A stretch of DNA of 64,000 nt, from positions 2,848,001-2,912,000 of the forward strand of contig OY970355.1 of NCBI GenBank assembly GCA_963718525.1. Reading direction: 5' to 3'. The notes under the pieces were generated by a model. That model was not told where the DNA came from and did no database searches. It saw only the letters and a program-made list of their open reading frames with translations. Shown here one piece after another: positions 55,688-58,932 of the stretch. Source of the stretch: Candidatus Dormiibacterota bacterium. Lineage in GTDB: Bacteria; Chloroflexota; Dormibacteria; Aeolococcales; Aeolococcaceae. The translations under genes and the position numbers were made by a program. Every line of letters starts with the position of its first letter. Positions within the stretch are counted from its first letter, which is position 1.

Positions 55688-56614
55688 ATGGACTTCTCAA
55701 TCGGCGAAGTGGCTCGGCTGACCGGCCTTCCGATCAAGACCATCCGCCATTACTCGGACATCGGCCTCGTCGCGGCGGTCAGCCGTACCGATGCCGGGTA
55801 TCGCCGCTACGACGAGGCCGGGCTGGCTCGCCTCGAACTTATTCATGCGCTGCGCGATCTCGGGATGGATCTTGCGAATATCCGGCGCGTCACCGATCGC
55901 GAGACCGGGATCGAGGAAGTGTCCCGCGCTCACGCCGACGCCATCGATCTGCACATCCAGCAGCTCACGTTACGCCGGGCAGTGCTGCGCGCCATCGCTC
56001 GCGGCGTCACCCGGCCCGAGGAGGTACGGCGCATGACCGCTCTTGCCCAAGCGTCAGCAGAGGAATCCCGCCGAATCATGGAGGAGTTTCTCGATTCCAT
56101 CTTCTCCGGCCATCAGGACAATCCGTTTGCTCAACGCATGCGCTCTGCGCTGCCCGTGCTGCCCGAGGAGCCCACCGCCGAGCAGATTGATGCATGGGTC
56201 GAGCTCGCCGGCCTGGTTCAAGACTCCGCGTTTCGTACCCGCATCCGCGAGATGATCGTCGAGGGCGAACGTCAGCGTGCCGCCTCAGGCATCACCGAAA
56301 CCGACGAGGCGACACAGCGTGCCGGGCAGCTTCTGGTGGATCGCGCAAGCTCGGCGGTCTCGGACGGCGTTGCCACTGATTCTGCCGAAGCCCTGGCGAT
56401 CGTCAACGAGGTGGTGCCGCTGTTCGCTGCAGCGGCGGACCGCAAGGACAGCCCGGAGTACCGCAGTGAGCTTGCCCACCAACTCGCGACGTTCAGCGAC
56501 CGCCGAGTCGAGCGCTACTGGCAACTCATCGGACTCCTCAACGGATGGCCGGCGCAACCCTCCCTGATGCGACCGTACGAATGGTTCATGGCCGCGCTCG
56601 ACAACTCGTTGTAA
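55688..56614 (+). CDS. MerR-family regulator with a TipAS-like C-terminus
   Basis: FSIGEVARLTG..KTIRHYSDIGL, GYRRY; RVERYWQL..LNGW. Confidence 0.93.
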   Translation: MDFSIGEVARLTGLPIKTIRHYSDIGLVAAVSRTDAGYRRYDEAGLARLELIHALRDLGMDLANIRRVTDRETGIEEVSRAHADAIDLHIQQLTLRRAVLRAIARGVTRPEEVRRMTALAQASAEESRRIMEEFLDSIFSGHQDNPFAQRMRSALPVLPEEPTAEQIDAWVELAGLVQDSAFRTRIREMIVEGERQRAASGITETDEATQRAGQLLVDRASSAVSDGVATDSAEALAIVNEVVPLFAAAADRKDSPEYRSELAHQLATFSDRRVERYWQLIGLLNGWPAQPSLMRPYEWFMAALDNSL

Positions 56615-56681
56615 TTCCTTGTCGGCGACGAAACGCGTGCGGGCCGTCTCTGCCTCGATTGGCGAGGCCGATCCCCGCTGA

Positions 56682-57218
56682 TCAGGGCGCGTCGATGATC
56701 GGAAGGAACTCCCGCCACGGGCCGATCGCCTGTGTGTACTGCTTTGCCATCGTCTTGCCGATCTGACCCAGGTGATTCAGGTCGTGGACAACCCAGGCGG
56801 CGAGCAGCTGGCTGATCGTCACCTCGCCGAAGGTGGGATGCACACCTCGCCGACTGAGATCCTCGATCGCGATCAATTCGTTCAGTGTCTTGAGATTCGT
56901 GGTCCTCAGCGCCGCGAATCGATCCAACAGATCATTCAGGCTCCAGTCCGCGAATCGGGCGAAGCCGGCCTCGCGGTCCACTGGCTCGAAGACACGTTCG
57001 GTTCCATGTTTGAGAATCAATCGCGTCCGGTCAATCCAGTCGCTCTCCTCCACGAACGTGAGGTGCCCAACGACCTGGTACGGAGACCACGTGTCGGGTC
57101 CTTCACCGCCGGTGATCCAGTCGTCCGAGAGGTCCGCGAGCATGGCCCGAAGCACGTCCGGAGTTCGACGAAGCACTTCGGTGCCGAGCTCGATCGAGAA
57201 GTCCATGACCTCTGCCAT
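56682..57218 (-). CDS. DinB-family protein (thiol S-transferase-like)
   Basis: TWS..QVVGHL, HPTFGEVT, WVVHDLNHL metal triad. Confidence 0.92.
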   Translation of the reverse strand: MAEVMDFSIELGTEVLRRTPDVLRAMLADLSDDWITGGEGPDTWSPYQVVGHLTFVEESDWIDRTRLILKHGTERVFEPVDREAGFARFADWSLNDLLDRFAALRTTNLKTLNELIAIEDLSRRGVHPTFGEVTISQLLAAWVVHDLNHLGQIGKTMAKQYTQAIGPWREFLPIIDAP

Positions 57219-57258
57219 CGTAGGACGCCAACGGACACACGGCCGGGCCTCGCGGATG

Positions 57259-57287
57259 TTGCGAACGGTTGGGCAAGTCTGTAAAGT
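57259..57287 (+). promoter_or_regulatory. sigma70 promoter of the putative small RNA
   Basis: TTGCGA-N17-TAAAGT with no credible downstream CDS on +. Confidence 0.7.
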
Positions 57288-57291
57288 CACC

Positions 57292-57438
57292 GGTTGCGGG
57301 CCCACCCGTCAGAAATGGCGAGTGGACGGCCCGGAAAGATGGTGGCCCATCAATCCGGACGAGGGTCGAGCCTGAGGGCCACCGAAAGGCACCGCCTCCC
57401 GTACTGAAGGCCCCGCGTCGCAAGATGTGGGGCTTTTC
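57292..57438 (+). ncRNA. Putative structured small RNA, about 145 nt, possibly Ms1/6S-like
   Basis: Promoter; GAAA-capped hairpin 57298-57332; stem GGTGGCCC/GGGCCACC 57341-57383; GCAA-capped terminator with U-tract. Confidence 0.7.
57407..57438 (+). terminator. Intrinsic terminator
   Basis: AAGGCCCCGCGTC-GCAA-GATGTGGGGCTTT followed by TCTCT. Confidence 0.8.
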
Positions 57439-57498
57439 TCTATGTCGGGGGACTGGCGCTTGGAAAGCCCCACGCCACCTCGCGTGTCTGAATGCAAG

Positions 57499-57675
57499 TC
57501 AGTCCTTGGAGACGTCCTCTTGAGCCGCGACCTCGACCGCCGTCAGCCGAGAGCCGCAATCCACGCACTTGGCGACCGGACGGTCGGGCGCCTCGACAAA
57601 CAGAGCCTCGACGAGCACCGATGGAAAGGTCAGTGGGATGACGCGGTCACTCCCGCACTGCACACAGAGCAGCAT
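57499..57675 (-). CDS. Small zinc-ribbon protein
   Basis: 58 aa; LCVQCGS...KCVDCGSR. Confidence 0.65.
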   Translation of the reverse strand: MLLCVQCGSDRVIPLTFPSVLVEALFVEAPDRPVAKCVDCGSRLTAVEVAAQEDVSKD

Positions 57676-57889
57676 GGCGCGCAATGCTCTCAGCGCGTGA
57701 GGATCTCCGTCTGTCCGCGAGAGAACCGTCGCGGTGATCATGACCTGGCAGCTGCCACCTGCTCGTTCATGAACGCGATCTCAGCGGCGTTGTTGGCGTG
57801 CGAGCGCTGCGCGGTACGCCGCCTCGGCTCGGACGGTTTCGCCGAGGCGATCGACAGCCGTTCATCCGCGAGGGCGATGAGCGTGATGC

Positions 57890-58129
57890 TCACCGCCCTT
57901 CGAGGACCCGAAGGCGACGCTGGTATTCGTCGGTGTCGATCTCGCCCCGCGCGAACCGCTCGCGTAGCACCGTGGCGGCGTCCGGCGTGCTGCCATGGCT
58001 GTGGCCAGCGCTCCACCACAGGCGTCCCCGCCAGAGGAAGAGGCCGATCACAGTGATCCACAGGGCGCCGAAGACCAACGGAAAGATCCACCAAAAGCCA
58101 AAGCCGCCGCCTGCCCAATATCCGTTCAT
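57890..58129 (-). CDS. SHOCT-domain membrane protein
   Basis: GGAGG RBS, Trp/Gly-rich TM, VLRERFARGEIDTDEYQRR. Confidence 0.9.
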   Translation of the reverse strand: MNGYWAGGGFGFWWIFPLVFGALWITVIGLFLWRGRLWWSAGHSHGSTPDAATVLRERFARGEIDTDEYQRRLRVLEGR

Positions 58130-58221
58130 GTCGTGTTCCTCCGATGTGTGCGCTGGATGCCAACGGCAACATCGTCGGAGACGCGCAGTGGTCCTGTCGT
58201 CCGTCGGGAAGCGACACTTTC

Positions 58222-58243
58222 GGCTACGTCCGGCGGCGTAGCC
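58222..58243. promoter_or_regulatory. NarL-type dyad upstream of the SHOCT gene
   Basis: GGCTACG-N8-CGTAGCC; core TACG-N8-CGTA shared with 60236-60253. Confidence 0.65.
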
Positions 58244-58257
58244 AAGCGAGGACGTGT

Positions 58258-58932
58258 CTACGCGAGCGCCTGGCCCGGCGACACGAGCCCGCTTTCGTAC
58301 GCAAAGACCACGAGCTGTGCACGATCCCGAGCGCCGAGCTTCTGCATGGATCGAGACACGTGGGTGCGCGCTGTCGCCGGGCTGATCACGAGCCGTTCGG
58401 CGATCTCGTCATTCGAAAGCCCGCAGCCCGCGAGTGCTACGACTTCACGCTCACGCTCGGTGAGGTTGGCCAGCAGCTTCGTCCGCGGTGCGACCCGTGC
58501 CGGGCGTGCGCTGAAGGCCTCGATGACGCGCCGCGTCACGGCCGGCGAGAGCAGCGACTCACCCGCGGCCACAACTCGAATCGCCCGGAGCAGCTCGGTT
58601 GGTTCCGCATCTTTGAGAAGAAACCCCCCGGCGCCGGCGCGAAGGGCTTCGAAGACGTACTCGTCAATCTCGAAGGTGGTGAGCACGAGCACGCGGACAC
58701 CGCTCAGCTCCGGGTCGGCGGCGATCAGACGCGTCGCCTCCAATCCATCCAGGACGGGCATACGGATGTCCATCACCACCACATCGGGTCGCAGCTCTCG
58801 TACGACCCGGAGCGCTTCCTGGCCGTCAGCGGCCTCTCCGACCACCTCGATGTCGGGCTCCGAGTCGACGAGCGCGCGCAAACCGACCCGGATCAAGGCC
58901 TGATCGTCGGCGAGCACAACGCGGACGCTCAC
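58258..58932 (-). CDS. NarL/LuxR-family response regulator
   Basis: VLADDQ, VMDIRMP, LTTFE, LTEREREV. Confidence 0.96.
   Translation of the reverse strand: MSVRVVLADDQALIRVGLRALVDSEPDIEVVGEAADGQEALRVVRELRPDVVVMDIRMPVLDGLEATRLIAADPELSGVRVLVLTTFEIDEYVFEALRAGAGGFLLKDAEPTELLRAIRVVAAGESLLSPAVTRRVIEAFSARPARVAPRTKLLANLTEREREVVALAGCGLSNDEIAERLVISPATARTHVSRSMQKLGARDRAQLVVFAYESGLVSPGQALA

Follow-up and report, generated by a model that had tools for sequence, protein, structure and literature searches.

Small RNAs that carry a C-rich seed and act independently of Hfq are known from Gram-positive bacteria, the examples being 6C RNA in Actinobacteria and RsaE/RoxS in Firmicutes. They share a layout of 5′ hairpins, a partly open C-rich stretch, and a terminator. 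For the Dormibacterota, an uncultured phylum of soil bacteria, no paper on small or regulatory RNAs was found in the literature that we searched. The locus described here had been put forward in an initial annotation as an unannotated, independently transcribed, structured small RNA and, more specifically, as a candidate RNA polymerase binder of the Ms1/6S kind. As given in PMC9130861, the length criterion for 6S RNA is ~160–200 nt. Ms1 RNA is described there as ~300 nt long, as belonging to Actinobacteria, and as having a conserved synteny with a HAD hydrolase and an oxidoreductase; the search for it required intergenic regions of >300 nt (PMC9130861).

The window, i.e., the whole stretch of DNA that was analysed, is 64,000 nt long and is part of a genome of 3.34 Mb (one contig, 66% G+C). 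Within it, a gap of 280 nt (57219–57498) lies between two genes of the minus strand. On its left is a DinB_2-family gene (56682–57218, minus; Pfam E 3e-18), and on its right is an ORF of 80 aa that is rich in Cys, has two CxxC-like pairs, and gave no Pfam match (57499–57741, minus). The plus strand of the gap carries a −35 box, TTGCGA (57259–57264), followed after a 17-nt spacer by a −10 box, TAAAGT (57282–57287). The RNA is predicted to start at ~57292–57294. The boxes had been described as near-consensus; they are indeed there and are conserved, but only 8 of the 12 positions match the consensus. Moreover, a simple promoter/terminator scan of 56500–58300 called no promoter and no terminator. 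Sequence alone is therefore insufficient as proof of a gene, and the case for promoter and terminator is made by their conservation and not by their match to a consensus.

Downstream of the promoter, the plus strand can be divided into four parts. Hairpin 1 (57294–57336) has a basal stem, an inner stem, and a GAAA-type loop. Hairpin 2 (GGUGGCCC...GGGCCACC, 57341–57383) ends in an apex of 18 invariant nucleotides, CCGGACGAGGGUCGAGCC (57355–57372). Between hairpin 2 and the terminator lies the near-invariant C-rich stretch GGCACCGCCUCCCGUAC (57388–57404), which is the proposed seed. The intrinsic terminator (57406–57437) consists of a G+C-rich stem (57410–57433) with a GCAA loop and a U-run (TTTT, 57434–57437). 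Both hairpins and the GNRA-capped terminator were thus present as the initial annotation had placed them. The GAAAG motifs said to flank hairpin 2 on both sides were also found in the window, but this symmetry is not conserved, the first copy being variable among relatives.

Conservation was examined by a DNA search of 60 relatives, of which 36 were genomes of the same genus and 24 were of a sister family. The stretch was present in 19 of the 36 same-genus genomes at 83–95% identity and absent from all 24 sister-family genomes. The matches were limited to window positions ~57255–57439. When 20 copies were aligned together with their flanks by MAFFT, conservation ran from ~3 bases before the −35 box to the U-run, and both flanks were unalignable. 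The −35 box aligned as TTGC(G/A)A and the −10 box as TA...T in 20/20 genus copies, and the U-run was conserved as well. All four distant full-length copies that were inspected (L046, L049, L050, and L051) kept the same spacing, with TTGTAA or TTGCAT at −35 and TAGAAT, TATCAT, TACCAT, or TATAAT at −10. As is expected of a trans-encoded small RNA, the locus has its own promoter and intrinsic terminator, and these are kept as one unit regardless of the neighbours.

Within the unit, ~90 of the 145 transcribed bases never varied in the 20 genus copies, and ~90 nt, helices and loops included, were identical across three genera. All 27 genome copies, which come from three genera, had the same apex of hairpin 2, a count that excludes the metagenome copies as those had been picked by the apex motif. 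The C-rich stretch was invariant in the 20 genus copies. It was also unchanged in the 55 distinct sequences described below, bar single changes in L182, L190, L187, and L102 and two truncated variant types. Among the parts that were not required by the search pattern, it is the most conserved one.

The plus strand folded as RNA with −76 kcal/mol (z −4.67), and none of 200 shuffles was as good; the z for the minus strand was −2.08. Minimum-energy and consensus folds both gave three separate hairpins with the terminator. The 20 copies were used to build a covariance model of 153 positions and 47 pairs, with which 27 full-length genome copies were recovered. The model also matched all 68 loci obtained by an exact-motif scan of metagenome contigs. 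The 68 metagenome loci, the window, and six genome loci formed a set of 75 copies, 55 of them distinct, in which 97.1% of the paired cells held a pair. Changes on both sides that keep the pair were seen at 16 of the 47 pairs, as against 4.2 ± 1.4 in shuffles (0/500 as high) and 0–8 in slid controls. It may be noted that these alignments, being fitted to the model, lean towards it, and that the metagenome copies had been chosen by the apex motif of hairpin 2. Homologues with compensatory changes, which the initial annotation had named as a check on its proposal, were thus found.

Such changes occurred in 8 of 14 pairs of hairpin 1, in 7 of 14 pairs of the terminator, and in 1 of 15 pairs of hairpin 2. 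Comparison of the sequences hence supports hairpin 1 and the terminator. Hairpin 2, which is 97–100% paired, appears compatible with the data and is hardly tested by variation: its one compensatory pair goes from A-U to G-C in 6 sequences, and 6 more pairs vary on one side through G-U. In the 27 genome copies, the helices were paired in 98.0% of cells when read on the plus strand versus 87.9% when read on the minus strand. The plus strand fits better because 138 cells are G-U pairs. A further helix put forward in the initial annotation, between 5′ UGCGGG and 3′ CCCGUA, can pair in 162/162 cells, yet 5 of its 6 pairs never vary, and it competes with the base of hairpin 1.

A run search with a 1.2-kb query returned 11 runs, each covering small shares of the query, as is expected if only a conserved part of 150 nt is matched. 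Four soil metatranscriptome runs, from four studies, were then compared with 57100–57600, and the element was present in all four. In three of them, from three studies (X4, X8, and X6), the contigs covered only 57303 to 57399/57401, i.e., 97–99 nt, and one of these libraries is as small as 37 million letters. In all three runs the insert is directly followed at its 3′ end by sequencing-adapter letters, and in X8 such letters also stand immediately before its 5′ end. The inserts are therefore short, discrete cDNAs and not fragments of longer genomic DNA. The same adapter follows the plus strand in the three runs, and it can be read for 18–25 letters beyond the point where the two adapter types diverge, so that the libraries look stranded and mutually consistent. 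From what is generally known of Illumina adapters, the orientation observed corresponds to plus-strand RNA under the common dUTP chemistry. Assuming this protocol, we infer that the RNA in X4, X8, and X6 is a plus-strand transcript. The fourth run (X7) also has contigs that extend to 57255 and 57447 and then pass into unlike sequence, from the flanks or DNA of a relative.

As a check, the initial annotation had named an abundant plus-strand transcript of ~145 nt. A discrete RNA was found in three of the four runs, its strand being plus under the dUTP assumption, but the insert is 97–99 nt long. It begins ~10 nt inside the predicted start and ends just before the terminator. These ends may be processing sites; if the RNA truly ended at 57399/57401, the cell would remove the terminator together with some of the seed. 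They may also be a library artefact, brought about by 5′ loss during second-strand synthesis and by priming in the sole open stretch before a very stable hairpin. Contigs are in any case a poor measure of RNA level and cannot show true RNA ends. Taken together, the conserved unit, the fold, and adapter-flanked inserts of a discrete small RNA in three of four runs, each from a different study, confirm that the locus is an unannotated, independently transcribed, structured small RNA.

The surroundings of 28 loci, taken to a distance of at most 8 kb per side, were examined by flank comparison and crude gene calls; gene coordinates outside the ORF list of the window come from a crude codon-score caller and are approximate. 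The RNA gene lies in at least 10 unrelated neighbourhoods. In L080, for example, the copy is 98.6% identical to that of the window, yet the two have no neighbour in common. From 16 contexts, 30 neighbour proteins were scanned: 23 belonged to ordinary chromosomal families, 6 were without a Pfam match, and one was an IS110-family fragment. The families include DinB_2, glyoxalase, MFS, AHSA1, acyl-CoA dehydrogenase, EthD, DUF2017, GCS2, LuxR, and FAD oxidase, and also ABC ATPase, glycosyltransferase, hexapeptide transferase, peroxiredoxin, Usp, 2-hydroxyacid dehydrogenase, NfeD, SPFH, and PCMT. No recurrent neighbour gene was found among the contexts compared. In 17 of 26 loci the next gene downstream was convergent, and different loci had different neighbours; hence the RNA is neither a leader, just as the initial annotation had held, nor tied to a partner gene. 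A cis-regulatory leader or riboswitch was rejected on the same grounds, as no same-strand downstream gene recurs. In the RNA-less genomes G061, G003, and G014, the sequence beside the orthologous DinB_2 or two-component neighbours was searched for remnants of the RNA with the filters off, and none above E 0.3 was found.

The spot in the window itself is variable among near relatives. In the locus of the closest relative (L003), the DinB_2 gene is missing, and the RNA gene directly adjoins sequence that is found ~1 kb upstream in the window; gene content at this spot therefore differs between the two. The DNA of the 80-aa ORF gene (57499–57741) is found beside the RNA gene in L003 also. Look-alikes of this ORF in L002 and L004 were placed upstream of the RNA and on the other strand by a first, noisy ORF clustering.

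With the covariance model, the RNA was found in 23 of 42 genomes of the genus, the host genome included, where it is single-copy. Among the genomes in which the model search did not find it are the single-contig G029 and the three-contig G003. Most genomes carry one copy; in two genomes there is a second full copy, or there are additional partial ones. An order-wide draw gave 26/151 genomes, with 25/106 in family f1 and 0/44 in family f2. Outside the genus, matches came from g14 (2/13), g7 (1/1), and g10, the last being one weak match (G119) that is not relied on. In a phylum-wide draw, 2/151 genomes were positive, both of family f1. An exact scan for two invariant motifs in 185,579 species, represented by one genome each, yielded 26 stretches. 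Twenty-four of these were titled Dormibacterota or Dormibacteria, one ‘bacterium’, and one ‘Candidatus Saccharimonadales’ (L127), the last title perhaps being a matter of binning or labelling. As far as searched, the RNA family is confined to one family of Candidatus Dormibacterota. It may be added that the nearest named relatives of a neighbouring protein, at 84–88% identity, are MAGs titled Candidatus Dormiibacterota or Dormibacteria. An RpoB segment left carriers and non-carriers interleaved by identity, being too conserved within the genus (96–99%) to separate them. By MgsA identity, one subgroup was mostly without the RNA (8 of 10 lacking it). The subgroup and the interleaving together indicate some clade structure, plus losses or gains.

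At the gathering score, Rfam gave no match in the whole window. When 57150–57550 was searched at E ≤10, four matches at chance level appeared (best E 0.71; 12–14 bits against cut-offs of 36–50), and 6S RNA was not among them. The 6S model RF00013 had no match at E ≤1 in the whole host genome and none in 42 genomes of the genus; in the control, it found 6S in only 5 of 14 genomes known to have it, a low sensitivity by which a divergent 6S RNA may be hidden in the genus. SRP RNA was located elsewhere in the host genome. Since no family matched, no well-described family takes away the novelty of the locus, a possibility that the initial annotation had left to an Rfam search.

The resemblance to 6S RNA lies in its being a small structured non-coding RNA with its own promoter, apparently abundant here. 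However, 6S RNA is a rod closed by its 5′ and 3′ ends with a large central bubble, whereas the Dormibacterota RNA folds into three hairpins; moreover, it is present in only 23 of the 42 genus genomes. At ~145 nt, and with no RF00013 match, it was rejected as a 6S RNA. With Ms1 it shares the character of a G+C-rich structured small RNA in a G+C-rich genome. It differs in that the host belongs to the Dormibacterota and not to the Actinobacteria, in that ~145 nt are accommodated in an intergenic region of 280 nt, and in that the 30 neighbour proteins of 16 contexts include no HAD-hydrolase or oxidoreductase synteny. Phylum, length, and synteny thus set it apart from Ms1 as described. The proposed link to Ms1/6S is consequently not supported, the RNA being non-actinobacterial, too short, not rod-shaped, without the synteny, without an Rfam match, and patchy in the genus. 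The locus is a genuine small RNA gene, ~145 bases long and transcribed separately, and probably not a relative of 6S or Ms1. It represents a new RNA family of a known general kind, outside Rfam, and is a candidate for a new Rfam family.

The known kind is that of 6C RNA and RsaE/RoxS. Like these, the gene stands alone between a promoter and an intrinsic terminator of its own, is ~100–150 nt in size with a few hairpins, and has a partly unpaired C-rich motif complementary to the Shine-Dalgarno sequence in a host without Hfq. Unlike in these, the C-rich motif is placed in the linker before the terminator and not in hairpin loops; a second invariant element of 18 nt sits atop hairpin 2, the phylum is another, and there is no Rfam match.

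What is directly observed here is the gene unit with its strand and conservation, part of the fold, and the occurrence of the RNA in RNA libraries. We give about equal weight for and against the reading that this stand-alone ~145-nt gene, with a sigma-70-type promoter and its own terminator, acts in trans as an Hfq-independent base-pairing regulator; the trans action is what we infer. In such a mechanism, the seed GGCACCGCCUCCCGUAC would base-pair with target mRNAs at ribosome-binding sites of the GGGAGG type, thereby blocking the initiation of translation. The part of the RNA to which target start regions would be complementary is CGCCUCCCGUAC. Hairpins 1 and 2 would confer stability, or the invariant 18-nt top of hairpin 2 would be a second contact surface. 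The seed contains CCUCC, like the 3′ end of the host's own 16S rRNA (...CACCTCCTTT), and GGAG is found upstream of 857 of 3152 crude gene starts. Occlusion of ribosome-binding sites is therefore the simplest mechanism to propose. Neither Hfq nor CsrA was found in the host genome. In the absence of CsrA, three GGA motifs of the RNA do not make it a CsrA sponge, and both a CsrA sponge and an Hfq-dependent RNA were rejected as candidates. The mean unpaired probability of the seed ranged from 0 to 0.9 across positions; part of it can form a 4-bp hairpin, and over much of it the values were 0 to 0.5.

Searches for targets were carried out in the host genome. Against 3152 crude start regions, the seed had 254 sites at ≤−24 kcal/mol, which is within the 152–339 of six controls (5 shuffled, 1 reversed), and no target stood above chance. 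With the 17-mer and ≤3 mismatches, 24 non-self matches were obtained in the genome, none of them convincing. By blastn-short, the whole RNA had 82 matches, all with E ≥0.35 except the gene itself, and no long complementary site was found. By raw count, thirteen genes have at least 9 complementary nt just before the start codon. The methylglyoxal synthase gene mgsA (G000:C1, about 2155262–2155719, minus) has ACGGGAGGCG 14 nt before its GTG start, and this motif is complementary to the C-rich stretch. Among mgsA loci of the same upstream type, GGGAGGCG was kept in 9 of 12 carriers of the RNA and in 0 of 4 non-carriers; these genomes are kin, and the region upstream is an entirely different one in five other carriers. 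As a target, mgsA is a weak lead, its motif being little more than a strong ribosome-binding site.

Besides the target searches, the partial folding of the seed, and the cDNA ends that fall inside it, it tells against pairing through the seed that the invariance of the entire hairpin 2 across genera exceeds what a base-pairing seed needs. As the seed model leaves this unexplained, a protein or RNP partner stays a serious rival, and the invariance fits such a partner at least as well. Hairpin 2 and the C-rich stretch would in that case be bound by a protein or complex, which is sequestered or scaffolded, and a compact RNA polymerase binder of the 6S/Ms1 type would be included here. The ~90 nt that are identical across three genera, in helices and loops alike, speak for it. 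So does the assembly of the RNA from very small metatranscriptome libraries, as is seen for very abundant stable RNAs, contig depth being a poor measure of level. The role of 6S, undetected in all 42 genus genomes by a model with a control of 5/14, is also not visibly filled. On the other hand, an RNA that occurs in only 23 of 42 genomes and is absent from the single-contig G029 is hard to fit to a housekeeping partner like RNA polymerase. With ~145 nt, three hairpins, no rod with a bubble, no Rfam match, no CsrA, and no recurrent neighbour gene also standing against it, we regard this explanation as possible and on the unlikely side. The C-rich stretch might alternatively be directed at the ribosome, for GCCUCCCGUA (57394–57403, plus) is a perfect 10-nt complement of UACGGGAGGC in the universally conserved part of 16S rRNA (in the host's own 16S gene near G000:C1:2605771, minus). 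The universal bacterial probe EUB338 is directed at this 16S stretch. Apart from the gene itself, the 10-mer occurs at only 4 places in the genome, one of which is the single 16S gene; the complementary part is the most conserved part of the stretch, and the A-to-G change in L102 would keep a G-U pair. The cDNA form moreover ends in ...CCUCCCG, resembling a copy of the 16S 3′ tail. However, for a 10-nt match between an RNA of 146 nt and ~4.5 kb of rRNA, the chance expectation is estimated at roughly 0.2–0.6. The best duplex energies with 16S and 23S did not stand out from those of shuffles, being −28.5 versus −25.9 ± 2.5 (minimum −31.4) for the seed and −27.1 versus −27.1 ± 1.6 for the top of hairpin 2. 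We consider a ribosome-directed RNA very improbable.

Carriage as cargo or guide RNA of a mobile element would explain the patchiness and the many contexts, and the ≥10 different neighbourhoods among 28 loci are in keeping with it, as are the lack of remnants beside orthologous neighbours in RNA-less genomes, the two genomes with two full or extra partial copies, and an IS110-family fragment 0.5 kb away at one locus. Yet the two invariant motifs had no match in viral contigs, and there were no recombinases and only the one transposase fragment among the 30 neighbour proteins, the others being the 23 ordinary ones and the 6 without Pfam. The RNA is also single-copy in most genomes, and its conservation stops exactly at promoter and terminator, with no extra conserved ends. 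We consider this quite improbable, though a shade less so than the ribosomal reading. Least probable of all is a gene for a small protein, encoded by a 30-codon frame (57315–57407, plus) or an 84-aa frame (57269–57523). In 19 of 27 copies, the 30-codon frame can be read through to the same stop, two of those 19 having no ATG. Its variable columns, however, number 8, 11, and 11 of 31 at codon positions 1, 2, and 3, with no excess at the third position, and no GGAGG precedes the ATG. Of the 27 copies, 3 have lost the start, 2 carry a frameshift, and 1 is stopped prematurely; in further copies the stop itself is gone. The claim that the region holds no credible CDS was thus sound, there being no codon-position pattern and a frame that is broken in several copies.

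Base pairing of the seed with ribosome-binding sites thus remains the preferred reading of the locus. The traits that make the RNA unusual are the fixation of its sequence across genera, its scattered contexts, its patchy presence, and its easy recovery from soil RNA libraries. A further reading is a lineage-specific, very abundant riboregulator in which the top of hairpin 2 and the 3′-proximal anti-Shine-Dalgarno copy act on the core expression machinery and not on a few mRNAs. It would do so either as an anti-Shine-Dalgarno mimic that titrates ribosome-binding sites globally, or as a compact 6S/Ms1 analogue in a genus where no 6S was found. This is a speculative extension that we think improbable. 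Were it true, the RNA might be a switch for the lifestyle of dormancy behind the name of the phylum. The RNA gene offers a concrete handle on post-transcriptional control in Dormibacterota, and the RNA is a marker transcript for the activity of the group in peat and soil metatranscriptomes.

Some loci carry derivatives of the RNA that are shortened or modular. Among the metagenome loci there were six (L169, L143, and L173; L148, L153, and L195). The first three differ in hairpin 1 and have a C-rich stretch that is shortened, and the last three, 101 nt long, are without the C-rich stretch and the terminator. In the genome G011, L047 (1501–1618) consists of hairpin 2 only and lies 6.6 kb from a full copy. 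In G015, L048 (1501–1615) has only the C-rich stretch and the terminator, and on its upstream side it is flanked by sequence homologous to the upstream flank of the full copies in G019 and G027.
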